Source: Leptogorgia sarmentosa
Lineage: Eukaryota
Reading direction: 5' to 3'
Assembly: GCA_964658305.1 (NCBI GenBank)
Contig: OZ210884.1
Coordinates: 3,596,001 to 3,660,000 of the forward strand
Length of the DNA stretch: 64,000 nucleotides
The notes beneath the pieces were generated by a model that was not told where the DNA came from, did not search any database, and was given only the letters and a program-made list of their open reading frames with translations. Positions 6,091-55,308 of the stretch are shown here, piece after piece. Made by a program: the position numbers and the translations under genes. Each line of letters opens with the position of its first letter. Positions within the stretch are counted from its first letter, which is position 1.

Positions 6091-6160
6091 TATAATTATA
6101 TACTTTTTGAATCTGTTGTATTTTACTATAGATTTAAGTTATATGCTATGAAACAATTTC

Positions 6161-9100: not shown

Positions 9101-11555
9101 CGCTCAGGTTTCCAAACGCTCACGTTTTTCAAAACGCTCAGGTTTCCAAACGCCCAGGTTTCAAAACGCTCAGGTTTCCAAACGCTCAGGTTTCAAAACG
9201 CTCAGGTTTCCAAACGCTCAGGTTTTTCAAAACGCTCAGGTTTCCAAACGCCCATGCAGGTTTCAAAACGCTCAGGTTTCCAAACGCTCAGGTTTCAAAA
9301 TGCTTAGGTTTCCAAACGCTCAGGTTTTTCAAAACGCTCAGGTTTCCAAACGCTCAGGTTTCCAAACGCTCAAGTTTCCAAACGCTCAGGTTTCCAAACG
9401 CTCAGGTTTCAAATCGTTCAGGCTTTTTAAAACGCTCAGGTTTCCAAACGCTCAGGTTTCCAAACGCTCAGGTTTTTTAAAACGCTCAGGTTTCCAAACG
9501 CTCAGGTTTTTTAAAACGCTCTGGTTTCAAAACGCTCAGATTTTTCAAAACGCTCAGGTTTCCAAACGCTCAGGTTTCCAAACGCTCAGGTTTCCAAACG
9601 CTCACGTTTTTCAAAACGCCCAGGTTTCCAAACGCCCAGGTTTCAAAACGCTCAGGTTTCCAAACGCTCAGGTTTCAAAACGCTCAGGTTTCCAAACGCT
9701 CAGGGTTTTCAAAACGCTCAGGTTTCCAAACGCTCAGGTTTCCAAACGCTCAGGTTTTTCAAAACGCCCAGGTTTCAAAACGCTCAGATTTCCAAACGCT
9801 CAGGTTTCAAAACGCTTAGGTTTCCAAACGGTCAGGTTTTTCAAAACGCTCAGGTTTCCAAACGCTCAGGTTTCCAAACGCTCAGGTTTCCAAACGCTCA
9901 GGTTTCCAAACGCTCAGGTTTCCAAACGCTCACGTTTCAAATCGCTCAGGCTTTTTAAAACGCTCAGGTTTCCAAACGCTCAGGTTTTTTAAAACGCTCA
10001 GGTTTCCAAACGCTCAGGTTTTTTAAAACGCTCAGGTTTCACAACGCTCAGATTTTTCAAAACGCTCAGGTTTCCAAACGCTCAGGTTTCCAAACGCTCA
10101 GGTTTCCAAACGCTCAGGTTTCCAAACGCTCAGGTTTCAAATCGCTCAGGCTTTTTAAAACGCTCAGGTTTGCAAATGCTCAGGTTTTTTAAAACGCTCA
10201 GGTTTCCAAACGCTCAGGTTTTTTAAAACGCTCAGGTTTCAAAACGCTCAGATTTTTCAAAACGCTCAGGTTTCCAAACGCTCAGGTTTCCAAACGCTCA
10301 GGTTTTTCAAAACGCTCAGTTTTCCAAACGCCCAGGTTTCAAAACGCTCAGGTTTCCAAACGCTCAGGTTTCCAAACGCTCGGGTTTCCAAACGCTCAGG
10401 TTTTTTAAAACGCTCAGGTTTCCAAACACTCAGGTTTTTTAAAACGCTCAGGTTTCAAAACGCTCAGATTTTTCAAAACGCTCAGGTTTCCAAACGCTCA
10501 GGTTTCCAAACGCTCAGGTTTCCAAACGCTCAGGTTTTTCAAAACGCTCAGGTTTCCAAACGCTCAGGTTACCAAACGCTCAGGTTTTTCAAAACGCCCA
10601 GGTTTCAAAACGCTCAGGTTTCCAAACGCTCAGGTTTCAAAACGCTTAGGTTTCCAAACGGTCAGGTTGTTCAAAACGCTCAGGTTTCCAAACGCTCAGG
10701 TTTCCAAACGCTCAGGTTTCCAAACGCTCAGGTTTCAAATCGCTCAGGCTTTTTAAAACGCTCAGGTTTCCAAACGCTCAGGTTTTTTAAAACGCTCAGG
10801 TTTCCAAACGCTCAGGTTTTTTAAAACGCTCAGGTTTCACAACGCTCAGATTTTTCAAAACGCTCAGGTTTCCAAACGCTCAGGTTTCCAAACGCTCAGG
10901 TTTCCAAACGCTCAGGATTCCAAACGCTCAGGTTTCAAATCGCTCAGGCTTTTTAAAACGCTCAGGTTTCCAAATGCTCAGGTTTTTTAAAACGCTCAAG
11001 TTTCCAAACGCTCAGGTTTTTTAAAACGCTCAGGTTTCAAAACGCTCAGATTTTTCAAAACGCTCAGGTTTCCAAACGCTCAGGTTTTTCAAAACGCTCA
11101 GTTTTCCAAACGCCCAGGTTTCAAAACGCTCAGGTTTCCAAACGCTCAGGTTTCCAAACGCTCGGGTTTCCAAACGCTCAGGTTTTTTAAAACGCTCAGG
11201 TTTCCAAACACTCAGGTTTTTTAAAACGCTCAGGTTTCAAAACGCTCAGATTTTTCAAAACGCTCAGGTTTCCAAACGCTCAGGTTTCCAAACGCTCAGG
11301 TTTCCAAACGCTCAGGTTTTTCAAAACGCTCAGGTTTCCAAACGCCCAGGTTTCCAAACGCTCAGGTTTCCAAACGCTCCGGTTTCAAATCGCTCAGGCT
11401 TTTTAAAACGCTCAGGTTTCCAAACGCTCAGGTTTCCAAACGCTCAGGTTTTTTAAAACGCTCAGGTTTCAAAACGCTCAGGTTTCCAAACGCTCGGGTT
11501 TTTCAAAACGCTCAGGTTTCAAAACGCCCAGGGTTCAAAACGCTCAGGTTTCAAA
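6161..11555. repeat. 5.4-kb satellite array, 15/17-bp unit AAACGCTCAGGTTTCC / AAAACGCTCAGGTTTTT(C/T)
   Basis: Roughly 350 tandem copies are directly visible. ORFs 6260-6568 and 9300-9992 are artefacts of the array. Confidence 0.99.
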
Positions 11556-14500
11556 ACCCTTACAAAAATAAACTATAGTTTCTTTCACCGAAACTATAGA
11601 GTTTAAAAAACTGTAGGAATTTGGAACAAAAACTATAGTTAAAATTAACTAAAGTTTCTAATAACTATAGTTTCACAAAACTACAGTTATTAATAAACTA
11701 TAGTTTTTTCTACCGAAAACCTTTCTTTTCGGAAAGTCACTGTTTTTTCGGAATTTCGAACCAATCAGAATGCCTGAACCGAATCGTCGCATCAAAAATT
11801 CTAATAAAGTTTGAGGGTTTCGATAACGATTGTGGTGAGGTTGACAGTTGGGATTATAATCTAGATTACATCTCTCTACGAGTGACAATGGCAATGACAT
11901 GTTATAAGTGACAATTACCGGCTGCCAGTGGCAGTTGCTATAAATTTCTAGCAAATGCCGTAAATTTTTCTCCCAAGTCAGTTTACAAAATTTGACTCCA
12001 TGGTTGCACTAGCCTATACGAAGAGCTGGTTGCAAGAGAACGTCAGCCAATCAAAACGCTCTGATGATAAATTTTCAATTGAGAAAAAACTCATATGAAA
12101 AATCGTAGCTTGCTTAGATCGTCTATTTGAGTATCATCATTTCTCTACGAAAGATTTTGTTAAACATCTCATAACAAGCCGTTGTCTTAAAAGTTCTCAA
12201 AAGCACTGCAGGACATTTGAGGCATGGGGATTACCCCCCCTCCCCCCACATTTCTGTTCGGATGAAAACAAGAAGAATGGAAAGAGTTCATATATAGTGT
12301 TGATAAAATTAAGACAAAATTAAATAAAAGAAAAAATTAAATTAGCTCTTTTGGCAGAATATTCTAAATCGCAAGAATGCCATCGGCCTGACAGCATTTT
12401 ATAGAAGAAAGTTTGTTCCTGGAAAATCATATGATAAAATCAGTCGTATTGTATATTGAATTCATCTAACAAGCATATATTGCTTTGTATAAGTATTCAG
12501 CCGGCAATCAAATAATGCCGGCGACTCTGGCTTTTGTTTCATCACATTTTCGTATATTCGACTCGTTTCTCTTTGATATTATTGACTCAACGTAATTTGG
12601 AACTTTCAGATTACTATATGATTATAACTAATTTGAATTTCAAAGCTAGCCAAAAAATGGCTGCCGCTTTGTGTAGATTTTTTTAGCAAAAAAACAAATA
12701 AATGATAGAGGAGCTTAAAACTAGTTCGCAAATTGAAAATACCAGCAAAGATATCTAGTCTTTTGTTTGACTGTGCGGAGAAAATGCTGCATTGTAAAGG
12801 AAATACAGCACGAGATAAAATATTCCGCAACAGGAGTTAATATAGATTATATAATTTGCTCGATTGTTTTTATGTGGAAGAAACAGCGATGAATATGAAC
12901 CAGGCAGCATATAAGTGATATTAACAGCAGTCCATGATGGCAACCATTCTTCGTTCAAGCAGGTGCTCGATGGACAAGCAAACCAACTTCGCTTCGTATA
13001 ATAGCAGCCGAACAACGCGAGACCAGTAATTTTAATTATTAAAATTTGTTCATGTATATTATTAAAGAATGTTCAAAGGAAAAACTCACTCGTGCATGTG
13101 TTTTTCAATTTGCACTCAAAACCATACTATTAACTATACAAATATTTTATTATTAAATGTTATTTTCCGAGTAGCCGAGCATTCTTCGAATTCATAATCC
13201 AAGAGATATTGGAGAAGGAACGTTAATTCTTGCTCATCAAATACAAATCGTGGAATCTGCCACTCGCGCGCTTTACTTCGTTAAACGGTAAGTGTTGTTA
13301 TACTCAGTGTGAGGGTATTTCTTAGTCAGATTGTTGGAATTAATTTTACTGTGATAACTGATGATTGATCACTTTAACATAACGAATCGCTGCTTTCTCA
13401 ATAATGCTCAAGAAGTTTAAATGAAAAAATAAGTTAACTTGTATAATTCACGGTAGCCTATGACCTATGTGGTGAAGATCGGCACACAAGTACGTTTTCA
13501 GGGCTTCTACATAACATGTACTATCCTCCGTGTACCACATTTTGAATAGTTGATACACTTATTATTTTCAGTTTGTTGTGCATGGCATTTGACATGCATT
13601 TTCTTGACAGATATATAATGGATGGTTTAATCAAGTAACCAATGTGAGTCAACATAAACGTGTAGTAGTCGTTGTGCAAAATCATTGACTTTAATCTTTA
13701 TTTTGACTTATAGTGACTTTGATTTAGAATTAAAACTAATTAAATAAATCAGTTATTGACACTAAAAGAAGAGATAAAAATAATGGAATCACATGATAGA
13801 AAAAACTTTAGAATTCATTGTTTCAAATTTGAGGCTTTCCGTGAATAGACTCGCTCATGCTATAACCAGAAATTCTGCCGTTCTTGCTTCTAGATTGTTG
13901 CTGATTTCCTGGTAGGGAGAAAAATAGAGTATTCTAAAACAAAGTATTATTATCAAACTCTGTGACTGCATGCGTGATTGGACATACGGAACATTTCGAA
14001 AGAACAATTATAATTTTTTTAAAACCGATTAATATATATTTTTAGTAATGGTTGGGCACAGATATGCTGCAATTGAAAACCTCACAATTGTTAGATTGAT
14101 AGCGGAACTATTCTCGAACAAAGTTTGCTATGGATACCAGTAATCAGGAAGTAAATAGAACAAGCAGGATGTTTCTGTGGCGAAAATTATTATGTCCAGC
14201 GCCCGCAATTCCTCATTCCATACATTCAGTAATAAAAAATGAGAATATCAATAATATAAAAATAAAGAAGACTTTATTATTTAAGATTTGTACACAGCTA
14301 ATTCTAAAAAGGTTGTCCTTTTCAAACTCAAAACAATAAGCGTTCAACTACTAGCGGTTAAGGGCCTGGTTTCGCGTCATGGACTATTGAAAGTCCGGGG
14401 AGTAAATAGGCGAAAACTCGGGCTTTCGATGAAGTGTGTCTGTCTTACGCAAGGGCACTGATACTCACTTTACCCTAGTAGTCAAAATTCATTATAAAAT

Positions 14501-19510: not shown

Positions 19511-20416
19511 TCATGAGAATTTAATGAATATGTGACCTCGAAAAACGTTAATTAACTTTGTTCCTTCACGGCGCAAAATCGAATTTCTCCAGAAAAATAT
19601 CAGGCTGTTCAATGTTGAATTAATTGAAACAAATGTGTTTGACCATAAAAGGAATAACATCAAGAATTGATCGTTTACTGCCCTCGTTCCTAATTTGAAG
19701 CGAAAAAATGAAAATAGAACTTGCGGAGCGGAACAAACAAAATAACACCCAACCGCCAAAGAACAAGTGGAAATATTCTTGAGATTTAAGATTCGACTTT
19801 TCCTATTGCTATCCGTGGTCTTTACAGTGGATGGCGCAATTCTTGACTCCCTGCGTTTTGATTTTGCGATGATTAACAGTTTGTAGTTCCCACAGACGAA
19901 AATGAATAAAAGCAATGAGAGAGCCAGAGCGATGAAAATGTTAAAAGCGACAGCTGTTTTGCTGCTGAATATCAGTGGCGCTACACCGATTACTATCATG
20001 GCCGAGAACGCCTGAAAATATACCAGCTTGGTTTTGGTGACTGATCTTTGATGGAAATATGGACAAGTCAGGGCAAGGAATCGTTCGCCGTTCAACGTTA
20101 AAAGCGCAGTCAGCGAGACACCAGATAACATAAAACTTACGAATATCCTTATATTTTCCCATGTTTCATTCTGGCGGCGCACGTCTTCGAAGGAATAATA
20201 AATCGTGGACGTGATCAACAATGGGTGAGTGATGGTCACTACAGCAAGGTCGAAACAAGACAGAACGAGAATCATAAAGTAACACAGTTTATTTCGAAGT
20301 TGTCGCGACTTCCATAGACTGATTATGACGACAGAATTGAAGAATATCCCGGCGACCATAAAAATTACATTTAAAATGCACAGAAAAACGACGTTGAATA
20401 TGTCACCTTGCTGCAT
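19511..20416 (-). CDS. Intronless rhodopsin-like (class A) orphan GPCR, ~301 aa
   Basis: Seven hydrophobic segments with GxxxN (TM1), LSCFD (TM2), ERF at the DRY position, CxxP (TM6) and NSxLNSLIFFWRN (TM7). First ATG is at 20416; the ORF track starts at an upstream GTG. Confidence 0.93.
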   Translation of the reverse strand: MQQGDIFNVVFLCILNVIFMVAGIFFNSVVIISLWKSRQLRNKLCYFMILVLSCFDLAVVTITHPLLITSTIYYSFEDVRRQNETWENIRIFVSFMLSGVSLTALLTLNGERFLALTCPYFHQRSVTKTKLVYFQAFSAMIVIGVAPLIFSSKTAVAFNIFIALALSLLLFIFVCGNYKLLIIAKSKRRESRIAPSTVKTTDSNRKSRILNLKNISTCSLAVGCYFVCSAPQVLFSFFRFKLGTRAVNDQFLMLFLLWSNTFVSINSTLNSLIFFWRNSILRREGTKLINVFRGHIFIKFS

Positions 20417-23106
20417 AATCACGTTCTATTTTGCATTGGTTTGATAGTCGTTTTCTGTGAGTTAGTCGAGCTCAAGCGGCCGATATATTATATTAAGTAA
20501 AAACTACATGAATTAATAAAGTGTGAAATAGGTTGTAATTATTGTTTTCTTCCAACGTTTATTTATTGAAATATTTTCATTTCTATCGATTAGTGAATAT
20601 ATACGTACGGTTCGGTACGCTGCTATTAATTAAAAATGTCCAAAATAATAATTATTGTAGAATTGTTTGGTATATTAAATTTCATAATGTTTGTACATAA
20701 TTATGATCAATGCATGGACTGACATTAAATAATAAAATGACCAAGGAACATGTATTATAATGGCTTTCGTCTGGGAGTGGAGCAAGGGTAGACCAGGCAT
20801 AGTGTTCTTAACCCCATGAATCAAGGGAAATTATGGGCCGAGCAATAGAATTATATCTAAAATATAGTTTGAACGTAAGCTGTACAAGAATTAATTCCTT
20901 GAATGTTTGCGTGGTGAAGATAATATTTATCAAGTTTGTATAGTTTACAACACATAATTTTATTATCGCAAACTGCTTTCGATCCGTAAGCCCGGATCTT
21001 TAAACGTGCCAATAATATCTGACTTCTTCCATTTCAAACAGTCGCTTTTTTTACCGTATAAGCGCCGTGATCAGTATGCACGTGAGTTATTAAAAATTCA
21101 CAAAACACGTCATTGCAAACGTAACGATGTGATCAAATTAACGCGTTCAATTACAAGGCAAGTGTTGATTTTGCACGTTCAGGAGTGCACGCCACGTACT
21201 ATCTAGTGACTTACCGTCTTGATAATGAACAGGAAAGCAAAGGATAATCTCACTACCTAATTGTGTTGTGCTATTCAATTTCAATATACATAGACTCTCT
21301 CATTTGGCGAGAGAACTATGACTATCAATCGTAAAATGTTTGTTCTAAGTAGCTAATTTTACCTTTTCCGGAGTTATTGCAACCTTCCCTTTTTCAAACC
21401 AAAATCAGGATTTGGAAGACTTCGAAAAACGTCAGAATCGAACTTCATGCATATTATGGAAGTTTGGAAAGTCATTGTGTGCGAAATACCAAAAGAACTC
21501 CATCACAAAACATATCAAAATGAAGATAAAACATTGTATAGTAGAATTTAGCTAAGTTTGAAAAGCTTGATTCCTCAGTGTGAATGTTCGAGCATATTTT
21601 AACGCCTACAAACGGTGGCCACCTTCTTCGAAGCGATCTTAATATTTGACCGAACGTTACTCATGGCTGTTTCCTGTTACGCATTTTTCATACGTAATAA
21701 GAAGCTGGTGAGCTTTCAGTCTTTGGGCGGGGGGGGGGGGGGAGTTTATGTAATACTAGGTAATACTAGGCAATTCTAGGCCATTCTACAATATACTTCT
21801 ACTCGTCTAAGCCGATAAGCCGAAGGACTTGCTGTTTCCAAGTCTATTTATGTCAAATTCCTTCGTAAAATGAAACATGGGGTTATTGATGAATAATTAG
21901 GGTAACAATTGGCAGGAATGTTATGGATATATTGGGGTAAAAATTGACAGCTCATTAATATTCAAATTTGTGGCTAAAGAAAATCCACTATCCGCCACGA
22001 GCCGAAACCTAGAGTCGCTTGGACACAGGTGACCCAGCGACTAACTACGTGTACGCACGTAAAAATTGAATTTGATTTTAACGTTTCCATACAATCATAT
22101 GAATAAATGTAAAGTATCTCATACCTTGAAGGATGTAGTATGTGTTTCTAATTACTCGGGCTACCGTAGGTATAGACCGAGTTTAAAAATGGGCTTCGAT
22201 TTTTTTTTTCGGTCGCGAGTTTGCAAAAAACACGCGTGGGCGACACGAAGTCCTTGAACCAGTGAAAACCTTCGTTGAATCGTTTCACGCGTGGGTTCAT
22301 GGTGCATGCCACGCGCACTACCAGTGGGTTCGTCATTTATAAACTTCATGTAGCCCGAGTGAACGCCTGATAGGCGTTTTGTTTATTAATGAAATCGGCT
22401 CACGTACGTGTACATACGCGTATAAATGGAATACAGCCTTTAAGAATCACGCGAAATTCTCTGTTTCTCCGGGAAACACGAATGGCTTCCTTAATTTTTT
22501 CCGTTGAATTATTTCGGATGTAATAAATATTTATAACTTTTTGAAGTTCAACTTTGAAAATACTGCACACAGCTTATGCGTGCGCCATTGTTATGATTTC
22601 TGGCGATAAAATTATGTCAGTTTGAGTTATCGAGGTCTCATTATTTTTTGCATGGAGCGATTGCATGCAATGTGCATAATATATAATATGTTTTTAAAAT
22701 ATTTTGTTTAATATGATTTAATATACTGTAAAATACGCCCACATGAAAACAAGTCTGTTTAGCTGAAGGGGCCGCCAGTGTCTTGTATGTTAAAAAATTA
22801 AAACACAAAATATACAATATTCACGAGTTTTATTTACAAATAGGCTCTACTTTATTTTGGTGACCTGTCAATAAGCACGCAGCTGTCCAAATTGAAGATC
22901 TAAGTCTGAAAACATCGAAGATTTTAATGCATGTGGCATAGTATCTGAACGAATGCCACAACAATGTTATTACATAATATTAGATTATTATAAAGTTTAT
23001 TAATCTAGAATAAAACAAATCAACGGTTTAATATATGAACAGTTTACAATAAAAGAATAAATGTCAACCGTTTCAAAAATAATTAAGCTTGTTTAAACAT
23101 AAAGGA

Positions 23107-23991
23107 CTAATTCTCCCTTGAAGTTCGTAAAGACTTGATAATTTCGATTCCTTCACGCCGGAGAATCGAGTTTCGCCAAAAAAATATGACACAGTTCAAT
23201 GTTGAGTTGATAGAGGTAAAGGTATTTGACCAGAGACTGAACAACAAGACTTCTCTATCGAATGGCGGGGCCCCTGTAGATAAGCGGAAAACCGAGTATA
23301 TAATATGCGGGCACGAACAAATGAAAAAACACCAAACCACCAAATAACATGTGGAAATATTTTTGAGGTTTAAAATTTGATGTTTTCCATTTTTTTCCAC
23401 CACAGCGGATGGCGTGGCCCCTTCGTCTTCGCGTTTTGATTTTGCGATGATGAACATTTTGTAGTTTCCATAAACTAACAAAGATAACAGCAATAAGATA
23501 GCTACAGCGGCGAAAATATTAACCGCGATCACTGTCTTCGTGTTGACGATCACCAATGGCGATACACCGACAATTGTAATCACCAGAAGTACCTGAAAAT
23601 ATACGAGTCTCGTTTTGGTGACTGATGTTTGATGGAAGTAAGGACATGTCAAGGCAAGAAATCGTTCAGCATTCAATATAAAAAGTGAAGACATCGAGAA
23701 ACCACATAGCACGAACGATATGAATGCGCGTGCACATTCTTGTACATCATTGACGTCGTCTTCAAAAAAATAGTGTATTGCTGAGACGATGAGCAATGGA
23801 TGATTGACTGTCACTACAGCCAAGTCAAAGCAAGATACAACAAGAATCATAAAGTAGCACAGTTTCCTCCGAAGTTGTCGCGTTCTCCACAGGCATATTA
23901 TGACGACAGAATTCAGAAATATTCCTGCGACCATAAATATTATATTTAAAAGACACAGAAGCACGACGTTAGAAATATCGCCTTTTTCCAT
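23107..23991 (-). CDS. Intronless rhodopsin-like (class A) orphan GPCR, ~294 aa, paralog of 19511-20416
   Basis: Same motifs (KLCYFMILV.SCFDLAVV, ERFLALTCPYFHQ, NLKNISTC, IFFWRNSILRREG). ATG at 23991. Confidence 0.93.
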   Translation of the reverse strand: MEKGDISNVVLLCLLNIIFMVAGIFLNSVVIICLWRTRQLRRKLCYFMILVVSCFDLAVVTVNHPLLIVSAIHYFFEDDVNDVQECARAFISFVLCGFSMSSLFILNAERFLALTCPYFHQTSVTKTRLVYFQVLLVITIVGVSPLVIVNTKTVIAVNIFAAVAILLLLSLLVYGNYKMFIIAKSKREDEGATPSAVVEKNGKHQILNLKNISTCYLVVWCFFICSCPHIIYSVFRLSTGAPPFDREVLLFSLWSNTFTSINSTLNCVIFFWRNSILRREGIEIIKSLRTSREN

Positions 23992-25880
23992 ATCTATGAG
24001 CACCCTTGCATGCTCGCGAGCACCTTGTTCGTCAATTCAAGTCATACAGCCTTACACTTAAATTAAAATGCAATATCTTATAGACAATTGAATAATTATG
24101 TGTGCACATGTTATCTACTCAAAAAAATGAATATGGACATTTGAATAACTGTAACAATAGGCGAAACGCATCCTTTTGAAGTGGAATATTGGCAGATCCG
24201 AGCGCAAGGATTTAAGCGAAATTAATTCCACGAGTTTTTGTTCAATTTATAACCATGGTACATGAACTTAAATTTCACAGGCAAAGAGAAATTGAATTCA
24301 GTTCAACTTAATGATCACTTTAGATTATTGACCTGTCAGTAAGCATGCAGCTGTGTTGAAAATGAATAAATGTATATTTTTGAGGCTGTGTATCTATGCA
24401 TTCTAGCCAATCAGATTGTTTTCTTTGCGGTACGGTATTTTTTAGGATAGGAACAGCTCAACTGGAGCGCTTTACACGGATTGCAAGCAGTGCACTGAAC
24501 AATAATAAAAGTATAATTCAAAATTGACTTCCATGTTTGAATTTATAACATCTTTAAACCAGTTGTTTAATAAAAAAATAATTTTTAATATGATATATAG
24601 GTGTTTAAATAATTTACTTGGGGATGCTTTCTTGTTTAATTTTGTCAATTTCCTCCTGCGAAACTTCATCAAACCGAGCGGCCATTTTGAATTTTAATTA
24701 TGAAAATTGTTATAGTCACCTCCTAGGAGGAGGTTTTCATGCAACCGCATGAAAATTTTCTTGTTTCTCTATTGTTATAGAAACACGAGTTTTTTGGAGC
24801 TCTCGACCAATCAACGCCCGTCTTTTTAAATGGCTATTTTATAATTTCAGACTACACGCCTATCCCACGTTATAAAACATTTGCAATAACAACAAAATAA
24901 TTCCATGGATTGGTCTATATGTAGCTATGTATGGACTCCAATAAAAGTTCTGTTTTTTTTTCAATAAAAACTTTATAATTGTCGAGGCAGGTGTTTTGAA
25001 TTATTATCAGTATTATTTCAGGGAGAGTGCAGTGTGCCAGAATTGTAGTGTAGCTCTGTGTTGATATATTAGGAATATTCTGCCCTCATTATTTGCTGCT
25101 CTGCAGATAATATGCACACTATATAAACGTTCTGGGGACTTATTCCTGCAATGATTCACCTGAATTTTAGTCTTGGTCCCATCCAAATATACCGTACCTA
25201 AAATTGTTACATGGTTCCAGTTGGAACCCCCCCCCCCCCCCCCACCTCCCTGCTAGTATGGATACGAGGCATGAAAATAACGTAGAAAAATTGCCCGTGA
25301 TGGTTTATGCGGATGAATGAACCTGTACCCGACGATCAAATTGGCCGTGATCGCGTATTGGGAATCTGAAATTTTAAATATTGCATTTCCCTATATCTGC
25401 TACCGAACTGGTGACGTCAGGCTTTTCTTTTTCGCTGCAAAATGAATGACCCAACGCTACTGTTCCATACACCCTAGAGTTCTTTGGTTCGTACATGCTG
25501 GCCTGCAGTTCAAATATCTACCGCTGCATATTTGATCGCGGTCATCATTAATCATTTGCATGAACAGTATGTTGTCAACAATCTTCAAACGCATGTCTAG
25601 ACGTACCATATCATTTTTCAAAATTCCGTTGAAATTCGCCGCTTTAGCTCACAAGATTAAAGGTATTTATTCCCAGTTCATGTCATGTACTTACAACAGC
25701 ATAATGTTCATGGATATTTTTCAGGATCTTGCAATTACTTCTTCAATAGAATCAGTTCATGAATTTCTGATCATGCTCAACTAACTCTAAATCAATATCC
25801 AGAACAATATCGATATCAACAGCTCCGTATAAAATTTTGCCATTCTCTGCATAACTGAGTTCTCACTGTAAGTTTTCTAG

Positions 25881-28800
25881 ATGATCGATGCTTGTAAGGG
25901 ATACTTAACACCGAAAAGATTTGGCATTGTCGCGTATGCATGTGTAATTCTTCACTGCCTCTGTGGAATTGTATTGACTGGTTGCACCATCGATTTGAGG
26001 GAAAGTGAGAGCGGAAAATTTTCCTGCACTGTTGATAGTAAAGCTTCATCCGCGTACAAAACACAGGTTGATCGGTCATGTTTTTTCAGATATGATGAAA
26101 CTTATAACTCTCCTCTGCGGCTGCACGCGTTTGTTTTACTGAGTATTGGACTCAGTGTTCTTATCAGTGTTAGTTATTCACTGGTGGCACGGAAGCGTGT
26201 CGACGAAATCGAGTCAAACCTGGCAGAGGAATATACAGAGAACAGAAGAACTGTCTATGTGTTCACGAGCTATTTCGTCCACCTTGTTCTGCGTGCGTTA
26301 CTTGGGATCATTTTTACTGTTTTACAACACGCATATTTCTATCGCGATGGTTTCGACTCGAAATTCAGCTGTAATTTGGCACTAACGGGTCAGGTAACAT
26401 CAAGTGACATAAACAAAGGAAATGGCGGCAGTCGTAATAGTACCTCAATAACATGTGAAAATGGAACTGCATCTGAAAAAATGGCATGGAGCATAGGTTT
26501 ATCCGTGGTAAACAGTATTGTTGCCTTCATAATACTTATTGAAGTGATTTATCTTTTGCGACGCTCAGTAATCCTGAAACGTCATTGTGAAGCTAGTTGG
26601 AATATTGATCTCGAATTTGTTACCGTCTATTTTCTCGGTAAACGATATACGATCCCTCGCGTCGATCAGGAAGGTATAGTATTCTGGACCAAATTATTCA
26701 AAACACTAGCTACGATCCTTATTTAGTTTCAAAGTTGACCAACAACACTCTTGGTAAACATTCAACATCGTCATTTTCAAATCCAACAGCAAACAAATTA
26801 AGAATAACTTTTCTCCCAGTCAGGACAACGAAATGATTATAAAGAAAGAAACTAGCTTCTTTAACTTGGGCCTAGCTCAAACGTCGCACTTTACATGAAC
26901 CGCTTGATCTCACTTTTAGGGATTGAGCTCATGTAAAGATCGGCGTCTGAATCAGTGAGTTAGTTTCGACTCATTTCGTCATGGTCAAACTTGGCAACCC
27001 AACGGCTGTCAGAATTACGACTTTGGATCGAGTCGCATTCAAACGTCGAACTTTACATAATATCCACAAGTGTCCTCGCATGATGGACGCCGCTATGATG
27101 GACTAATTGAATGAAAATGGCTCGAAATGACGGCTTCACTAGGTACCGTTCGACAAGGGTTCGATGTCTGAATCAACTAACCCTTTAGGACCTAATCATT
27201 CGACAGGATCGGTTTATGTGAAGTTCGACGTTTGAACTAGGCCTTAACTTCCTTACTAGATTCTTTAACCGCAAATCGACCAAATTCAAATTTCCACACT
27301 GCTCATATTGTATTATTTCGAATGCTGTAATTTCTTCAAACTAATGGAGTTGCATATAATTTAGACCTCTACCCTTGGGCAAAAATAGCCCTATGAAATA
27401 TTTCTATGAACTAAATAATCCTGATGTCGGTTAGGATTAAAGCTTTCAAATAATTAATAGAAACGCTGAAAGCTAATTTGAATTAATTTAAACAGTTTGA
27501 AATAAGTTGTTATGAGTTCATTTGAAAAGCAATCAGTCGGGAAGAACCTGTTTGGCGACGTAATTTAATACCGCTCTTGTTTTGTCTCTGCCTGCTACGT
27601 ACAAAAACAATATATATCCGGTCCTTCGACACAGATATAACTTCGTTGTAATATATCCCGTACTTATATAGTGACATACATTGCCAATGGCTGGTACCGG
27701 TTAGTATTGCTCTTTGTTTATCGCTAGTCAAAGTAGTCAAATAGCTAATTCATTATGTAAAGATTGTGTTCAAAATATTCCTAATTTCTAATAATTATAA
27801 GCATGCAGAACGGCGATAAAACGTGTACGTGCATGCGGTTAGTTTATAGTGTTTCTATTCCGATTCGCTCATCTCCTTTTGAATGTTCTTGATTTCATTG
27901 GACCAAAATACTGTATGTTGTATAACCAGGAAAACGTATTGCTTGAACGATCAGAGACCGGTTGTACAAAACTGAAAGTTTTCAACATTATATAGAACAA
28001 CGCGTATTTAGTGCATATCCTACATAGTGCACACTTTGGCTTATCAACCGTTCAGGCTTAACGTGCTTCGTACATCCGGCCGGGCCCCTGCTTTACTATA
28101 GATAAAGCTATCTATCCAGCGTTTTGGCTCACATTTTCGATTTTAAAAAGGCATTTTAGCGATCTATGTACGTTGGACAGATAAGACAAATAATTAAATA
28201 AATGTTGCTACGTTGTAGTGTCATAAGCAATTGGGGGCACTGTGAAACCTCAACGTCTATATTATGTTTGCATTTTCAAAATGGATTATTTGTACAACTT
28301 TTTAATGTATCGAATGTAATAGAGGAAGAAGGCATCGCTATTCCTAGGCCAAAAAATATAGTTTATTGACAATTTCGCCACAATATTTGTTCGCGTGTGT
28401 TATCTGAGAAACGCAGCATGTAAACAGACACCCACTTTCGACTTTTCACAAGACACAATAATTTCGATTCCTTATATTTCATCCACATAGACGTATATGA
28501 ACGTTCTGTTATGTGATAGACAAATCGATTATATGAATAAAATAGATAACAGTTTATTTGCCGTTTTGGCTATTATCAGAAAGATACAAGATAAAGATTA
28601 TCAGTAAGAGTACGCTGCTTTGGCTTAGCGGGGATTGAGCTGCCATGGCTTTCAATTAAATTACTCTTAAGAAATAAATTCTTGAAACAAGGCTCGATCC
28701 TCTATAAACGTTCTGTTTTGATAGACGAATCGATTATATGAATGAAATAAATAACAGTTTGTCGTTTTGGCTGTTATCAGAAAGATAACATGCATGATTT

Positions 28801-31800
28801 GTTCGTGGTTTGATCACACAGTCAGTTCCGGTCGTCTAGCGGGAAGTGCGCTGCTTTGCTTATTAAGAATGTGCTTAAAAGCTCTAAAAATATAGACATC
28901 AAGAGAAAATTTAACAATGACGAAACGTGCTGATTTTTTTAATCTTGCCTATGGTTTAGGTTAATTTGTATATGCGCTATTCGAAAAATGCAATTTTCGC
29001 CGTTAGTCTTGGCAGAATACCACACCGTTCAAAACTAAACAATTCCATTTCCTTTTAGGTAAAGATACGACAGACACCCATGCAGTGATCATGAGAGAAC
29101 CAACAGGTTGGCAAATAATAACTGATCAACTTCAATATGTGCGCGGGCACCGTAGCCAGCGGATGACAACATCAACAAGCTCTTCCTCATGTTCCTCAGT
29201 TCTACTCACTAGCTAAACGATACAATAAGATTGCACGTTTGGAACAAAAAAGGCTCTTCGTTTGTTATAAACAACTTATTTAAATGTTAGCTGAATTTTA
29301 TTCCAAACATATAACTTTTATAATGAATATAAAAATATATTTGTGTCAAATCATGGCCAGAAATAGTGGATATGATTGCGAAATTATACAGCTAGGCCAT
29401 GGAATATTAATTCACTCACACGCTATGTATTGCAATAATGTTTTATTTTACACAAAAACATGACTAAAGTGCCAACTGATATTTTTAAATAACCAAAACT
29501 GAATTATCTCAGCTATAGCAGAGGGCAAAGGTGAATTGAAATAATAATCAGAATGTACTGATATCTCAGAGACTGCACTGATCTCTGACTAATTATATAT
29601 CGATTTCTATTCTGTAGAGACTGATGATCAACCAGACACTCGAACGGCCGTTATTGCCGGTAAAACAACATTATATTTCATCATTTTACTCGCGTAGTAG
29701 TTTAAGTACCTGAAATCGCCCGGGTTGTTTATTGATTACTGTATGTCAGCTTTTTTTTATAGAAAACCGTGTTTCATCATCATCATCACACACACAAGAA
29801 ACGAATACCGGTAATTATTTTTTTATTTGTGCATGCCTAGTGATATTTTTTTATTTCCTGCAATCTGATTGGCTGCAGCAGCGGGCGGCTTTTTACGATA
29901 TCTTGACCGTGGTCCAAAAGTGTTATTTTTTAGCGACTTAGTTTGTTTACAAAGACTCCCTTTAAATTTTTAAAGTTTTTTTAGAACATTCAAAACGAAT
30001 TTAGGCGATAAAGAACAGATGAAAGTTCATTTTATTATGCTAAAGGATATTTTAGGGGATATTTACAGCAACAAAAACAAGTCTGATCAGTATGAACAAA
30101 ACAAAACATTCTCGGCGAAATATTTCGGTGTCTAAAGCGTATTTTAACCATGTTTATATCGTGAAACGAACGGGAAAATAAATAATTTTAATAAGTTTAC
30201 CTTTTTCATTGTAATGTTGAGATGAAAAGCATCAATATTGAAGCAAATGCGTCAATATTGAAGTGTTTTTTCTCACTTCGTCTTGGCTGTTTAGCAGCCA
30301 TACTTGCGATAGAGTAGCAAAGTAAACAAACACAACTGATCTCAAATCTAGTTTGCAACACTGGAATTTCTTATGAGCTTTATTATAGCTTCGAGCATAA
30401 AAAAAATAAATAATTTATTTACCATTTAGGTCGGTCCGTACTGGAAAATATTTTATCTCGGTCTCAAAAACGCCCCTCGGCCTTCGGCCTCGGTCCGTTT
30501 TTAAGACCTCGACAAAATATTTTCCAGTACGGACCTCCCAGCCGGTAAATAACATATATATATTTAATGTTGTAACAATTTAATGTTGTCGTGTCCTCAA
30601 GTAGTGATCGGGAACATCAAAAATCAACCGCTGTAAAACTTGCCCTATATAAATGAAAGTTCCCCTAGGAATCACAGAAACTAGGTATATAGTATAAATA
30701 TGTTTTCATAAGCCGTGTTTACATTGCAGTGGTTTACTTGCCTGTACCTAGCCTATAGCTGGCCAAAGTAATTAGTGTGAACCGGTTTTTACTTCTTCTG
30801 GACCTAACCCAGACCACAAATTATAGGCCAATCAAAAGAGATGACCTACCCTGGACTCAACCTATCCTAGACCAATACATTTTCTTGATGTGAAGAGCTT
30901 TTACTGTCCAATCAACACAGGAAAGCGTTGTTGCTATGGTCTCTCGAGCCCACAATAGCAATTGGTCAGATGAGATAAATTAAACAGCTGGGAAATTCGT
31001 TTGAGCATGCGCGAATTCGAATGCATGGTGCGCGTGAAAATTTTGTGCGCTGCGGGAATTTTCAAAATCTAATATGTAAAAAAATTGGCGGCAAACATTT
31101 TAGTACATTTTGCGTAATAATTCCCTTTGTTTATTTAGTTACAACTTAGAGAAAGACCCCTATAAGTCTCTAGTTTGCCACAAATATGTGAAAACGTTGG
31201 AAACCGTAGGAAAAAGCCGTCCACCACGTCGCGACTTCGATGCTTGCTTTGTCCTGTGTATAGTGTCGTCCAAAAATGCAAGCTGTTTTTTTACAACCCA
31301 AAGCCTGTAGGCGCAATTTTGAGAGGAAATCAACACGTTCATCGTTTAGGCATACAATTAAATAATAAAATTAATTACGATTGAAATGATTTTGGAGCAA
31401 CAGGCAGAATTTTTTAAAATTAGCTTCGAATGAGAAAAGCCCTTTCCTCCAACAGCAACAAAAATAACGTCAAATTCGAATTTCCAGGCACAAAAATCAG
31501 ACCAATTAGAGCTGGTTAATTGCAATAAAACATATTTATAATATCATTAAAGTCTGTGACTAAAGATGAAACTGCGTTTTAAAACATAAAAACTTTGTAA
31601 CTGTACATTGTCGAGGTTGAATCCAAAAGTTAATAACTCGTGTCAGTGTGGACAGCACCCTAGATGTTAAAATCATATATTATCGACTGGAGGATACTAC
31701 ACGCGGTCGTGTTCTTTTTTCCTTGTTTGTTGATCGAACTGCAGCGAGGGATTTTCAAATTGTTTTTAAAATTACACCGATAAACGGCTAATTACGATAT

Positions 31801-33988
31801 GATATACCATGTCCCAAAATGTAGTTAATAAGAATAACTGAACTAGCTACTTGAAAACATATCAACCGCACTTCTTTCATTCAGTCTTATAACACACTCC
31901 TGTTGTCTTTTTAATTGTAGGTGCTGCTGCTTCTGCAGCGGATTTTTTCGAACAGATCTGTGAAAAAAAGCGTTTAAGACTCGGCGACATTAATCCCAAT
32001 GTTTTAAAAAGAGCTTCTGACTTGCTTAATATTGACGACGCGTTGGACAATGATTGGCGAACTTTAGCTGGTATACTTGGATACATTGCAACAGATGTCC
32101 AGGTAGGCCAATAATCAATAGATCAGAGAAAAATCGTGTGGAACGTATACAGGCTGTTCAATTTGATTACTACCAGTGGGCAGACGTATAGCCGCGAAGC
32201 GGAGTCTTTAAATGCTTTTTATAATGCCGGCTCATGCGGATTGGAAATTAATTAAAAAACAAGTGATTTCAAAAGAAATCTATCCTAGAGAATACGAATA
32301 TACGAACATGTACCCCCAATTCATCCAAATTAACGCTCTGTTTATAAAATGATCCAAACGTCAACGAAAATACCGACTATAACCAAACAGGTTCTGCAAC
32401 CGGACTTCACATTCCAATGCCAAATTCTTTTACAAAAAGCTTTTGCTATTATTGAGCAAATATATGGAATCAGATACCTGATGAGATAACGAGCTTATTA
32501 TCGCTAGCTTCGTGTTGCAAAAAGTTTGTTCATCGACCTCTGATTTCACTTCTTGGTCTCAGTGGTTTTTATTTGTTCGTAAATATATTTATTTTTTTCC
32601 GGTCCGTAACTCCCGGTCCGTAATCTAAATAGAGCTTTCTGATTGGTTGCTGAGCGGTCCGTATCCTACGGTACGGACCGCTCGCATTCTCGTAGATACA
32701 AATATAGTCAATGTTTTTGTTTTTTAAAATTGAATGGCCGCTTTTTAAAACATTCAAAACGAATTTAGGCGATAAAGAACACATGAAAGTTCATTTTATT
32801 ATGCTAAGGGATATTTTAGGGGGTATTTACAGCGACGAAAACTCATAAGTATCAACAAAGTCTCATCAGTATGAACAAAACAAAACATTCTCGGCGAAAT
32901 ATTTCGGTGTCTAAAGCGTATTTTAACCATGTTTGTATCGTGAAACGAACGGGAAAATAAATAATTTTAATAAGTTTACCTTTTCCGCAGTAATGTTGAG
33001 TGGAAAAGTCGTCAATATTGAAGAAAAGGCGTCAATATTGAAGGGTTTTTTCTCACTTCGTCTTGGCTGTTTAGCAGCCATACATGCATGCGATAGAGTA
33101 GCAAAGTAAACAAACACAACTGACATCAAAATCTAGTTCGCAACACTAGTGGAATTTTTGACGAATTTTATCATAGCATCGAGGGGAAAAAAATAAATAA
33201 GTTATTTACCATTTAGGTCGGTCCGTACTGGAAAATATTTCGTCTCGGTCTCAAAAACGTCCCTCGGCCTTCGGCCTCGGGCCGTTTTTGAGACCTTGAC
33301 AAAATATTTTCCAGTACGGACCTCCCAGCTGGTAAATAACATATATATATTTTATAGCTACATAGGTGGAGTTTATAACTTTTGAAAATATCTTCTTTTG
33401 TCACACCTCTTTTGTAAACCTCGGCTTTTGCGGAGAAGACTTAGTGCGTTTAAATGAAATCGATCATCATCATCAATATCGTATCAAAATCATCCCATGC
33501 AGTACTCCTGAAAATGGGTTTATAGAGGTTGCTCAATGAACTGAATTTATATTCCTGAGGTGGAAACAAACAACCATAAACATTTTTAATCGAATCCTTT
33601 AAAATTCTCATTAAATCAGCAGTCTTCAAACAGCAGTCTTCTCAGCTTGTTTCCATGAATAAAGAGACAGTTTTCTAAGTTAAATTTTATAACAGGGATT
33701 ATTTTTCAGGTTTTTTATTATTGTTGTAAATACATTTAAAACTGTTTTCAAGGAATTGTCAACTTATCTCCTATTCAGATTTTTGAAAGTTCGACCAGTA
33801 GCGTCAAACAGACCACTCCTGCCAGACGAATGTTGGATCAATGGGGGAATGCAGACGATAACAATGTGGAAAAACTTGTCGACGCTCTCAGGAAGATGAA
33901 AAATCGGCGCGTGATGGAAATGTTTCAGAAAGAATTAAAAAAGAAGGAAGAATCCTGCAACTGCCCCGATTGTAAACATTTAACGTGA
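25881..33988 (+). CDS. Connexin-like four-transmembrane protein fused to a C-terminal death domain (~424 aa, 5 coding exons)
   Basis: Exons 25881-26673 (4 TM, phase 1), 29059-29106 (GKDTTDTHAVIMREPT), 29618-29659 (ETDDQPDTRTAVIA), 31921-32102 (...LLNIDDALDNDWRTLAGILGYIATDVQ), 33779-33988 (IFESST...TPARRMLDQWG...NVEKLVDALRKMKNRRVMEMF...CNCPDCKHLT*). All introns are GT-AG and in phase. The two micro-exons are less certain but frame-neutral. Confidence 0.8.
26868..27244. mobile_element. MITE, PIF/Harbinger-like
   Basis: TIR GGCCTAG(C/T)TCAAACGTCG(C/A)ACTT(T/C)ACAT at both ends. Related termini (gttcgacgtctgaaacgggcc) occur inside 991-1335. Confidence 0.75.
29838..30562. mobile_element. Hairpin-ended non-autonomous element, copy 1 (GGCCTTCGGCC loop)
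   Basis: ~575 bp shared with 32749-33350. Terminal palindrome at ~30415-30555. CTGATTGGCTG near the other end. Confidence 0.8.
32583..33350. mobile_element. Hairpin-ended non-autonomous element, copy 2
   Basis: Direct repeat of 29985-30560 with a different left end that also contains CTGATTGGTTG. Confidence 0.8.
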
Positions 33989-36922: not shown

Positions 36923-39807
36923 TTAACCTTTAAAATGAAAAATATGTCCTTAATATTTAATTATATATTAGGTATTAATTATATTGAAATATCGTATACT
37001 CTATACTACAAACTATACACCCTAGCTTTGCAAGAAATATCGGATTTGATGTATATATTGTATCGTAATTTAGGTAGTGAGTGTAACAGTTTAATGTTGT
37101 CGTAGTGTGATATCATACTGTTTACCTTTTACCCAATTATTATATTCTATGTCAATTTTACAAAACGCCCAACCCACATAAAGGTCTGAGGGTATCGCAC
37201 TTTACAAAATGTTTCCAAAATTTTGTACATTAATCTCAGTATTTGGCAGAAAAACTGCGATCGAAGGTCAAGCGCATGTGTGAGTATACGCATTGCCGGG
37301 AAAATCTTATTCGAAACAAGAACAAATTAAATGGCGAAAAAAGTCCCTAATACAATTGAAAAAAGCTGAAGTATCAAAAAAGAAACTAAAAGAGAATTCA
37401 TTTTACCGCTTTTTTCTCGTATCAAGGTGACTAAATTCGTACTTAACTTTCTACATTCATTATTTTCCTGTCAGTTTCACTGAAAAGGCGCTCATGTAAT
37501 GTATCTTATACTTTTTTTTTGCCTTACCAACCGACGACCTTACCAACCACGACGATTAGAGTGAAGTTCAGTAAATTCGACGCATGTGCAGACATTTCCC
37601 GCGTTGTTCAAACAACCACAATTTATTAATTTTCATAAAATAAATATAGCTTATTGAATGGTTTGACATGCAATACGGCGTGGTATTTTACGAGTTTCGT
37701 AAAATTATTTATACTTCGTAAAATTATATACGAAATTATACGACACACAACTGTATTTCTGATAATTAGCATTTATTAGATTAAATGTTAGATTAAACAG
37801 TTCGCGTCGGCCATTTTGGCTTTTATTGCTTTGTTTAATTCCGGTTTCGAAACCGGTTTCGAAACCGGTTTCAAACCAGTATATTAGAGTGCAATACGGC
37901 TAGTGCAATACGGCTGGGTATCTGCACTCTGTTTTGCCCTTATATGGTAAAATGACGTCATTGTCGAATAATAATACAACATACTCACATCCTTTCTCTT
38001 TATATTGACAAATGAATCCCTTTCTATGGTCGCATTTAATGTCATTTAGTTGTCCTCTTCTTCCCTGGTCTAACAACATTTCGACACATTTTTCATTTCC
38101 TCCCCAGTTATCTGGCTGGTTATGAGCCCAGCGTACCGCACCCAATGCTTTACGACAAACGTCATAAAATCCAGAACTCCAGAAGTATCTGGAAAAGCAG
38201 GAAAAAAATATTCCGCTGCAGTTATCCATTTTAAATCCCTTTCAAGTTAAACCCAAAAAGTTCAAAAAATTGAATTATCAGCTATGTGTGAAATTGTCAT
38301 ATCTAACAGTTGATGTCGTAACGTGTGACGTTTTCATTCCTGTTCGACGTGATAACGAGGGTGAAAATTCTATGAACAATTCTTCGTCACCTGAATGAGC
38401 GCACCAAGAAAGTGGAGTTATCACTCTGGAATCGCCGTTTCCGGCAATCTAGAGGTTCTAAATGTTCAGAATACTTTCGCTGGCACCTGATGAGATTTAC
38501 CACCCCTTAATTTGGCAAAAAGCTCTCTACACCCCCCCCCCCCTGAAAATGCAGCCCGTACACCAATGGCTATAATTTTGTATAGGGAATGAATCTTCTT
38601 TTACTATTTGCGTTTTACCGAATTAATCAATGGCATGGGTGCAGGTTAGACACCATATATATATAATTCAGTGGTAGTGCTATTGCTACGTATTTCTTGT
38701 TTGGTTCATGAATGGTAACCTTTTGAACGTCACCGAACAGAAATTTATATTCTGGAGTGTAGCTTTCTACTACTGTGAGATGTGACACTGTCGGTCTACA
38801 CCGAAAAAATACTGTTTACTGTCTGAGAAAATGCCACGATTGTAGATCGATATTAGTTTTTTCCGACTCGGTCATATCGATTTGCACAACCGAATTCAGT
38901 TAAAATCCGTCCTCAAAATGCAGTAGTACACGTTTCTTACGGCCTTATTTTCACATTTCCCGATGGGTGCATTTTCCCTGCCTCTCTTTAATGTACGCCC
39001 CTCGGGCGGTCGATCAGCCCGCTGGGCCTGCAAACATCTAGAATAGTATACTTATATTGACATTACATGCAGTAGATTAAGTTATTAGTTTTTAGAGGTG
39101 ACTATAAATTTTTTTGGCTTCCTATCTTTTTGACATTTACCCAGAACAACCAAAGATTTTTTAATGACCTTCAAGGGTATTTTTACTTCTTTAGCTTTCT
39201 TTGTGACAATAAGATGTCCTATTTCCACAGTGGAGTGTTGATTGACTTACCCTCGTCTCACGCCAATCCAAGGAGCAGCCAACCCAGCGCTACTTGCTTC
39301 ATTACTCAAATAAACACTATCAGTATAACTTGTGGGTATGGCCAAGACTCCTCCTTTAGACACACAAGTTAGTCGAGCTGCGTCCCAAGGTTCTTTTTTC
39401 TTCACAAACATATAACAACCATCCAAAATCTTTGACCAACCACAAGGGCACACGTGACCTGTTCAAATTTGCAATGCTGTATTAATAGTTTTTGTCTATT
39501 TCAATCAACATTTACTTCACGATCAACCCGTATTATATTAACCCCGTATTGATATTAACCCGTTTTAAGACGATGTTTCTATGTGTTCATGGCGAAGGAC
39601 TATAAATCAAAATCGACTAATCAGAAAATTGTTCATTGCATGGCTGTCATAAAACTACTATTTATTGCATTCAATATATTGGACATTTCGCTGAAGATAC
39701 ATTTTATATGTTTTGGTAAAACATATGGAATAAAACTTACTAGGGAGGTAACTACTCTCGACGTTGCTTGCGCAAACAGCAAGAACAAGGAGCATTTTGA
39801 ACATCAT
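36923..39807 (-). CDS. Secreted single-domain C-type lectin (QPD motif), ~159 aa, spliced
   Basis: Exons 39807-39741 (signal peptide MMFKMLLVLAVCASNVES), 39458-39251 (CPCGW...GCY...WDAARLTC...GGVLA...WIG), 38188-37989 (W..NQPDNWGGNEKCVEM...LNDIKC...FICQ), all phase-compatible. The terminal micro-exon 36927-36923 (C*) is tentative. Confidence 0.9.
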
Positions 39808-47800: not shown

Positions 47801-49666
47801 GCCAGTTTGGCCAATTAAGGTTGGTTATTGGCTATAATATTAAAAATAATACTATATAGCAAATTCGCAATATCATAGATTTCGTAATGGAATACTAAAA
47901 CCGCATTAAAGTGAAAAAATAGTGTGAGGTTGATCAACGATTTGAAGATTTAATTTAATGATTTTTTTAGATCAAAACGTTTCAAACACACGTGCTGAAC
48001 TGTATATCAGACTCTCTACGGAACTCTACATCTCGAGGTGGAAATTAAAGCCATGTGTTAAAATACTGGAATTGAATCAAGGCTGGTGAAGGCTAGCTTG
48101 GTGGTGTTGAGGTATGCCGGGTTCAGAGACATCTTATTCATAGCGAACTGTGCCACGTGTATACTAAAAGTACTAAAGTTACCAGTTTTTACTGTCATAG
48201 CGAGAGAGAAATAACGCCTGATTTCAATGTTGGACTTATGATTGTAATTTTTGTTAATTGCTCAAAAATTAATTGAGAGTTTATAATTAATATGGTATAT
48301 TTTTGTTAAATTCCAGAAAAGCACTACAGTCCGTTCAAACCAGAGAATATACAACGCCATTCGGAGAAATCACGCAAAGTTAAAGAATGTAACACGAAGC
48401 TCATTTGAGGTACCAGATTTTTGCTTCTCTTTTGATAGTTCACATGGCAATGTTCAAAATAACGTGTCCGTTTATCAAATTATTCCTTTCTCGATTGCTT
48501 TCTTGCTTTGTCGTGTATTCTTCTGTATTATATGTTGTATCGTATATCGTAATGTGAACTTTGTCTTGTGTTTTTTATCAATAATTTTACCATTTAATCA
48601 CATTGCTAATTTCAACTCGGATATAAAAAATTCGCGCGGTTTTAGTTCAAATTGTTGCTTAAAGTTATCAGACTGTCCTAATTTCCTTTTTAAAATGTTC
48701 GAAATTCCAAGACGGAATTTTAAACAGTGCAATTAAAACATGTACTGTTTATTCATTTTTGTTTTATATATGAAAATATTTTTTGCAATACCAGTCGAAT
48801 CCTAATTTCCGTTGTACAAATTACATTTTAACGATTTCAGTTTATCCATTTACTCGGAAAAGCAGTCAAAATAAGCATTAGCAGGGATAATTTCTATAAT
48901 GTATCTGCAATGAAATATTTTCTATGCGCGGGAAAACGTTTGAATTACGATTAATAGCTAATTGTAATGCGATGCGGACCTGAAAGTATTATATATACAG
49001 AACATAGAACAAAGTATGAGCTAGTAATATTTTTATATTCATAATATTTGCAAGAGAACGAGCAAGGTGTACAACACCTCGGGCTATAATGTCACCGAGA
49101 ACTGCATGTATTTAAATCATCGTATCTACAGTATATATGTGTTATTTTAATGAGGGGGCGTACACAATATAGGTTGTTTTTCGCCAGAAAAATATGTATG
49201 TACACGTAATATTATTCCACGTGTTCATGATCATATGAGATTTTGACGAAAGTTTTCACAGCATTCACAAGGTATTGAAAATCAATGCAAAAATATTAAT
49301 TGAAATTGCACGTTTCATTTGAAAAGTAATAAAAATCACTATAATATGTTTTTACATGTTATACGTGTTTTAGTGAACAAAAGCATGTTAGGTAGCTAAT
49401 CGTTTAAGTTTTCGAAGGTTACATGCATGCTTGAATGAATTTCCCGTAGCTTTTACTTTGGTGAACTGAAGGTTTGTTCGTATATCGTTCGATGCTTCAT
49501 GTCGGATGGTTTGTTGAAATTTAGGATTTTGCATGCTTCGCTGATCAGCAGCCATAGTCTTTGCCAGTTTTAAGGATAAATTCAAACGGTTAATACATCG
49601 CTAAATAATTATTAAGTATTACATTATGTGAACAAGAAAAAATTTAAAGACTTGTTTAAATGTAAA

Positions 49667-54208: not shown

Positions 54209-54650
54209 AACGAACGATTTTCCTATTAGTTGGAAAATAATGAACATTTTATTTGAACATTTTAAAAACTGTTACATGCAAAGAATTACTATTAAAATTG
54301 GCTTAAAATGTCATCAAATGTTAAATTGAAGTCATCATTTAAAAACGGTTCTTCTTAAAAATAAAAATTGTTCCACTCCAAGGAGGCCAAGAGGTCATCA
54401 CGCCAGGTGAAGGCTAGATCGTATGAACTATTATAACTACTTTTCAGCATGCACAAATAGCATAACTGTGAAAGTAAAATAAAAACACACATATGTAGCT
54501 ATAGGTTTTTTGAACATTTATTTTTCAACATCATTCATATTTTCAAGCACCACATTAAAGACACTGTAAGAGAAAACAAATAAATACATAAATAAAAATT
54601 CTAGATCATGTGATAATGTTTTATGTGAATGCTTAGATAGCGTAAATATT

Positions 54651-55084: not shown

Positions 55085-55308
55085 TTCGGGTGTAAGGTGC
55101 CAGCTGTGAGTCTATACGTGTAAGACGGCTAAATATATACGATATGTTTTGCATTAATTTAGGTCTAATGATCTGTATGAAGTGACTTTTATTGCATATA
55201 AATGACAAAAACCTATACAACTATAAATTAATTATTAGTCCTTTATTTTACCGTAACGATCGTTAATTTATCAGATATTGCCATACATATTTTGTAAACT
55301 GTATAGAC

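Follow-up and report, generated by a model that had tools for sequence, protein, structure and literature searches.

Does a single gene of Leptogorgia sarmentosa join a connexin-like membrane channel to a death domain, and if so, what kind of protein does it make? The locus that raises this question lies on the + strand of a 64,000-nucleotide stretch of contig OZ210884.1 (assembly GCA_964658305.1, positions 3,596,001 to 3,660,000), referred to below as the window, and was picked out by a sequence-only reading that correctly placed it in a non-chordate host, likely an octocoral in our view, and in what we also judge to be an immune setting. We found that the locus is a real spliced gene, in which an anthozoan connexin-like domain is followed by a death domain. 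The stretch is contained in six public sequencing runs, none of them recorded as RNA. Three (X3, X5 and X6, three samples from one study, of unrecorded kind) were taken as RNA from their precise GT..AG joints, and X1, X2 and X4 are DNA-like, with even coverage apart from repeats. The features of the locus, numbered from the first letter of the window, with lengths in nucleotides (nt) and protein positions in amino acids (aa), are as follows.

25628 to 25662, + strand: 3' end of a 5'-untranslated region (UTR) exon; GT..AG joint 25662>25873 in run X6, with 35 letters on the short side
25873 to 26673, + strand: exon 1, with its ATG at 25881, encoding the entire connexin-like (CxL) domain (aa 1-264); joints
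26674 to 26726, + strand: read-through of intron 1 to a stop, from the list of open reading frames (ORFs); contigs of the RNA-like runs extend over intron 1
27673 to 27699, + strand: second donor (27699) spliced to exon 2, with an in-frame ATG at 27687; joint 27699>29059 in X5 and X6
29059 to 29106, + strand: exon 2, linker, 48 nt, phase 1-1; joints
29618 to 29659, + strand: exon 3, linker, 42 nt, phase 1-1; joints in three of three runs
29763 to 29810, + strand: exon 3b, serine-rich linker, 48 nt, phase 1-1, frame kept; joints
31921 to 32102, + strand: exon 4, aa 311-371, putative first half of the death domain with a DWRxLA motif; joints
33779 to 33988, + strand: coding part of exon 5, aa 372-440 and stop TGA, second half of the death domain (Pfam PF00531) and then a CxCxxC tail; joint in three of three runs

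Spliced as exons 1, 2, 3, 3b, 4 and 5, the gene has an open frame of 1323 nt and 440 aa with GT..AG at every intron; AG and GT dinucleotides are present at all junctions of the earlier proposal, whose exons keep an open frame. A 281-codon ORF at 25881-26726 has four hydrophobic segments, in agreement with the four transmembrane helices ascribed to exon 1. The union of this exon with the death-domain exons in one gene, also proposed earlier, is borne out by a chain of joints through exon 2 in the RNA-like runs. Joints 29106>29618, 29659>29763 and 32102>33779 were found in all three of these runs, 29810>31921 in two with loose ends in the third, and 26673>29059 in two, with 25 letters on its short side and a 16-letter loose end in the third run. 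A second allele of exon 1 is also joined to exon 2, as loose ends, and the 11 joints listed show no alternative way out of this chain. The joint that defines the 5'-UTR intron (25663-25872) occurs in one of three RNA-like runs.

Three of the four junctions foreseen in the sequence-only reading (26673>29059, 29106>29618 and 32102>33779) were recovered, whereas the fourth, 29659>31921, is absent from the RNA-like runs and is replaced by 29659>29763 and 29810>31921, with the 48-nt exon 3b between them. The earlier model of five exons and 424 aa is thus corrected to 440 aa by the one exon that it had missed; the 5'-UTR intron and the second donor at 27699 had been overlooked as well. The count of joint 29810>31921 is zero in the DNA-like runs X1, X2 and X4, which rules out a retrocopy in the DNA for this joint among those listed. 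Exon-to-exon differences in depth were left unused because contig depth cannot rank the parts of a gene.

The channel domain is coded by one exon (25881-26673). Modelled from a 38-row alignment, with a predicted local distance difference test score (pLDDT) of 80.6, it has four long helices with strands in the outer loops; a short N-terminal helix is predicted at aa 2-8 and membrane helices within aa 16-46, 81-115, 127-153 and 197-228. The connexin likeness first read from motifs is matched by this predicted fold: Foldseek placed connexins at ranks 1-16 (the first 15 rows listed) and a pannexin at rank 17, and in a second structure search, VIA, connexin-50 came first (Z 16.9, root-mean-square deviation 3.1 over 172 aligned), followed at lower scores by connexin-32 (14.9), LRRC8 (14.7), pannexin-1 (14.4) and innexin-6 (11.6). 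The predicted structure therefore favours a connexin fold over that of innexins or pannexins. By profile the likeness is weaker: the Pfam Connexin family (PF00029) matches exon 1 with 16 bits (E 0.01), not reaching the curated cut-off of 31.3, but 36 of the 38 aligned relatives match it at E<=0.1. Neither an innexin nor a pannexin family was among 25 of 33 Pfam families shown, and a PDB sequence search with exon 1 or its profile gave no connexin match. In the Atlas, exon 1 led to connexin-bearing clusters at 0.92-0.96, where the label 'commonest Chordata' rests on few members and has no bearing on the host here. DUF6040, with E 3e-4 under its cut-off in one of 38 members, was judged a chance match.

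The reading frame of exon 1 is uninterrupted and retains all residues that are invariant in the CxL family. Its four loop cysteines (C49, C67, C164 and C192), two per outer loop, are invariant in the 38 aligned sequences and kept in 266-273 of 273 domains. Loop 2, in which 263 of 273 domains carry a sequon, has two of them here (N186 and N194), and these argue against gap-junction docking. The N-terminal helix has charged residues D3 and K6. With regard to residues for CO2 carbamylation, no lysine is found in aa 120-153, which include the start of helix 3; K105 is in helix 2, and R227, R228 and K233 follow helix 4. Exon 1 belongs to the anthozoan CxL family, and the protein is neither an NLR (NOD-like receptor) nor a classical connexin.

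Chordate connexins (Cx26, Cx50 and Cx31.3/GJC3) are the best structural matches to exon 1, alongside the weak match to PF00029, but their identity to it is 12-20%, and it differs from them in its two cysteines per loop, its loop-2 sequons and the folded signalling domain at the C-terminus. Classical chordate connexins have three cysteines per outer loop. Two per loop also occur in the epsilon connexin clade (Butler et al., June 2026 preprint, bioRxiv 10.64898/2026.06.13.731801). LRRC8/VRAC, pannexins and innexins share the same large-pore fold class and stood below connexins in both structure searches. LRRC8 likewise joins a large-pore domain to a cytosolic interaction domain.

The death domain assigned earlier to the final exons is upheld by Pfam Death (PF00531), which matches exon 5 alone with 29.9 bits against a cut-off of 22.6 (E 6e-7, profile positions 42-85 of 86). 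The best PDB sequence match of the exon 5 region is the p75NTR death domain, a weak one (E 0.017). Exon 4 alone gave no death-domain match in Pfam or the PDB; its sole match, a colicin D immunity protein at E 0.6, was rejected, and we take its DWRxLA motif to be a death-domain motif. Exon 5 alone was modelled as three helices (pLDDT 64) without a Foldseek match, and its Atlas leads were all under 0.9. The CxCxxC tail occupies 33961-33988, at the C-terminus after the death domain. Death receptors and adaptors such as p75NTR, MyD88 and FADD carry a membrane-tethered or soluble death domain; here the tether is a predicted multi-pass channel and not a single-pass helix.

The nearest relatives of exon 1 are of a different architecture. 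We found 61 near-length homologues of the domain and 203 long ones with E<=0.001, the best of them at E 1e-91 and 62% identity; all 120 long homologues listed, at 51-63% identity to the exon-1 domain, carry NACHT. Clustering of homologues at 50% gave 199 representatives. Homologues from the octocoral Paramuricea clavata are 54-57% identical, in keeping with a likely octocoral host. By contrast, the spliced frame ends at 33988 without NACHT or leucine-rich repeats (LRR); tblastn with 181 homologues, most with NACHT, returned no matches outside exon 1 in the window; and DNA likeness to connexin-NLR loci gives out near 26649, 24 bases short of the donor. One homologue (P0228, 778 aa) has two tandem connexin-like domains in one ORF.

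In phylogenies built with FastTree (273 rows, after exclusion of the 57 among 330 proteins whose cover was short) and IQ-TREE (63 rows, hand-picked from the FastTree result), the window domain groups with three near-identical proteins (90-94%). This group is sister to two proteins, P0002 and P0003 (support 90), and the starred clades that enclose it consist of single-ORF connexin-NLRs (97). A tree with the window domain forced out is rejected by a narrow margin (p-AU 0.0455, borderline), for a group named after the tree had been seen. P0002 and P0003, which lie on one 610-kb contig and are 64-67% identical to the window domain, end shortly after it, and their read-through G-I-V is that of the start of intron 1 in this gene, which suggests an old donor shared with them. 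As the domain nests deep among octocoral-type connexin-NLRs in both trees, we reject an ancestral position: the fusion is derived and is no stand-in for the connexin ancestor, to which the sequence-only reading had thought it might be related. We infer that a connexin-NLR gave rise to the gene by losing its NACHT-LRR part and acquiring death-domain exons.

Connexin relatives outside chordates are themselves not new, so the novelty implied earlier falls away. Yuen et al. (2013; PMC3879445) described membrane-bound NLRs of cnidarians (MetazoanNLR clade 1) that begin with three to four membrane helices and, in Nematostella and Acropora, give a Gene3D gap-junction-channel match; the N-terminal helices are alike, but those proteins are NACHT-LRR receptors, and this gene has neither domain. 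Butler et al. (bioRxiv 10.64898/2026.06.13.731801) identified anthozoan CxL domains as connexin homologues, present in 4-100 copies per coral genome, 92% with NACHT and 8% without. Hemichannels of tested CxL proteins release ATP and glutamate and are opened by depolarisation and in part by CO2, and three of three anthozoan relatives tested gave no dye coupling. Forms fused to NACHT, caspase or TIR still open, with no partner added; no fused domain was shown gating or signalling. The preprint also describes a clade in which an exon boundary falls where the domain ends, as well as the caspase fusion plCxL60 and the TIR fusion dpCxL52. The present gene resembles these anthozoan proteins in its four helices, single coding exon, two cysteines per loop, charged N-terminal helix and fusion to an immune domain, and differs in its C-terminal death domain: the words 'death', 'Octocoral' and 'Paramuricea' do not occur in the main text of Butler et al. 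Nor do they describe a second donor like the one here, which would yield either a channel-less or a channel-only product. This copy may have lost NACHT independently of their non-NLR clade.

No other gene with the same pairing was found in the material searched, a weak negative because the proteins look like single-ORF calls, in which spliced exons would not show. None of 19 longer candidate proteins compared with exon 5 carried the fusion, the best match of the death-domain region to 330 fetched proteins had E 1.4, and Pfam found no Death at E<=1e-4 in 65 homologues (56 of 84 new representatives of at least 300 aa and nine earlier ones). None of 594 pattern matches of exon 5 in metagenome contigs gave a fusion, and none of 13 CxL loci (1.3-8.6 kb) had a death domain. 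A literature search found no connexin-death-domain fusion, with the proviso that the extra-domain supplements of Butler et al. may list one; the pairing is apparently unreported.

Allele counts apply to the rows listed (the table has 40 further rows). In run X6, there are 18 differences in 733 letters of exon 1 versus none in 317 letters of the death-domain exons (Fisher p 0.003). Differences in exon 1 (25881-26672) are mostly non-synonymous and cluster at aa 34-46 and 118-120; at positions 155, 168 and 82, the window allele carries R, L and H, and other alleles carry P, P and Y. This pattern would fit either an immune gene under diversifying selection or a channel under relaxed selection.

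The locus may also encode a second isoform, either channel-less or channel-only, since donor 27699 is spliced to 29059 in two of three RNA-like runs, with no joint into an acceptor upstream of it among the 11 listed. The ATG at 27687 is in frame with exon 2, and no other ATG lies in 27515-27686, the 170 bases before it. A transcription start in intron 1 would give a 180-aa death-domain protein without membrane helices, while an extended exon 1 reaching 27699 would stop at 26724-26726 and give a 281-aa channel-only product.

Our preferred reading, with a probability of roughly 0.55, is that the gene makes a spliced CxL protein in which a death domain replaces the NACHT-LRR of its relatives, and that this protein forms a predicted hemichannel ring, releasing ATP-like signals and clustering death domains for immune or cell-death signalling. 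A single-exon connexin-NLR would have lost everything after the channel domain, gained a phase-1 donor and been spliced onto death-domain exons. By analogy with tested relatives, the CxL domains would form an unpaired six- or seven-fold ring that opens on depolarisation, and this ring would not dock from cell to cell, as the loop-2 sequons also suggest. Once open, it would release small signals such as ATP, and it would hold the death domains beneath the membrane on flexible linkers of ~65 residues. Clustered death domains may in turn recruit partners (an adaptor, a kinase or a death-domain-bearing NLR), if they behave as death domains do generally.

Several observations count against this reading. 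No single contig in runs X3, X5 and X6, and no long read, spans exon 1 to the death domain, so that the fusion rests on the chain of joints through exon 2, where the joint from exon 1 has just the 25 letters on its short side and the runs come from one study of unrecorded kind. The second donor supplies exon 2 without the donor of exon 1. Exon-1 codons that differ from the window are changed non-synonymously in 10 of 14 cases (X5) and 15 of 19 (X6), for an expected fraction of 0.76, and the branch leading to this gene in the IQ-TREE phylogeny is long, at 0.25 versus 0.07 for its sisters. There is also no second example of the fusion among the 330 homologues, which look like single-ORF calls and cannot show spliced exons.

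Some of these points could be turned into a different account, in which a soluble death-domain adaptor made from intron 1, starting at ATG 27687, is the working gene, and the CxL exon is the remnant of a truncated NLR that is sometimes spliced in, giving a fusion without a selected role. The use of donor 27699 in two of three runs, the position of its ATG as the first and in frame, the lack of a purifying signal among exon-1 alleles (18 of 733 letters against none of 317 in X6) and the replacement of P, P and Y by R155, L168 and H82 in the window allele all speak for it. We nevertheless consider it rather unlikely, given that exon 1 is open with all invariant family residues, that splicing of exon 1 onto exon 2 is seen for two alleles (by a joint and by loose ends), and that the sisters, 33-36% diverged, seem to end at the same kind of donor; an in-frame ATG is moreover a one-in-three chance.

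Two further accounts keep the fusion and change the task of the channel. The CxL domain might serve as an address, entering mixed rings with connexin-NLR paralogues, lending them its death domain and relaying NLR activation. Vertebrate connexins do form mixed hexamers, the nearest full-length relatives are connexin-NLRs at 60-63% identity, and a death domain was found in none of the 330 fetched homologues, but the faster change in this copy may have altered the interface, and we regard the idea as quite improbable. We are more sceptical still of the executioner role put forward in the sequence-only reading, in which assembly of an upstream death-domain sensor on the tails would open the pore, so that the cell dies or danger signals escape. 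The architecture is that of a pore with a homotypic recruitment domain, and death domains are among those joined to NACHT in cnidarians according to Emery et al. (PMC8260672), so that NLRs bearing them exist there. However, forms fused to NACHT or caspase needed no partner to open on depolarisation, or in some cases on CO2, the preprint reports no gating by a fused domain (bioRxiv 10.64898/2026.06.13.731801), and the linkers after the CxL domain here are long and of low complexity. Elements of these accounts can be combined, with one locus supplying a channel-death-domain subunit that plugs into connexin-NLR rings, giving them a death-domain output, and, through a second start in intron 1, a soluble protein that would tune this subunit as its death-domain partner or decoy. 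Such a split platform for coral immune signalling, built on a channel and without known counterpart, seems to us doubtful.

The surroundings of the gene in the window include two tandem intronless ORFs of rhodopsin-type G-protein-coupled receptors on the - strand (19514-20425 and 23107-24036), head to head with it; the latter matches Pfam 7tm_1 and the former is alike by eye. All three RNA-like runs cover a segment at about 24613-24900, two of them showing a loose end at 24613; it is probably an untranslated exon of a neighbour or of this gene. High-copy repeats lie in the introns at 29198-29232, about 29860-30570 and 32580-33350 (summed depth 1e4-1e5); the two long repeats resemble each other and seem to be non-autonomous transposons. 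A large tandem-repeat array at about 6100-11600 has open frames in all three + frames. On the - strand, exons at 37903-38241 and 62967-63671 appear by eye to encode a C-type lectin domain and a trypsin-like protease, and in 49627-58018 a charged ORF unit resembling a coiled coil recurs several times, its copies separated by simple repeats.

The gene adds the death fold to the known fusion partners of CxL domains, namely NACHT-LRR, caspase, TIR, STING and RHIM. Its descent points to a channel exon reshuffled out of an NLR within octocoral-type lineages, and leaves the dating of connexins unchanged. As a transcript-supported protein of 440 aa with only a channel and a death domain, it is a minimal test case for tying CxL pores to immune signalling.

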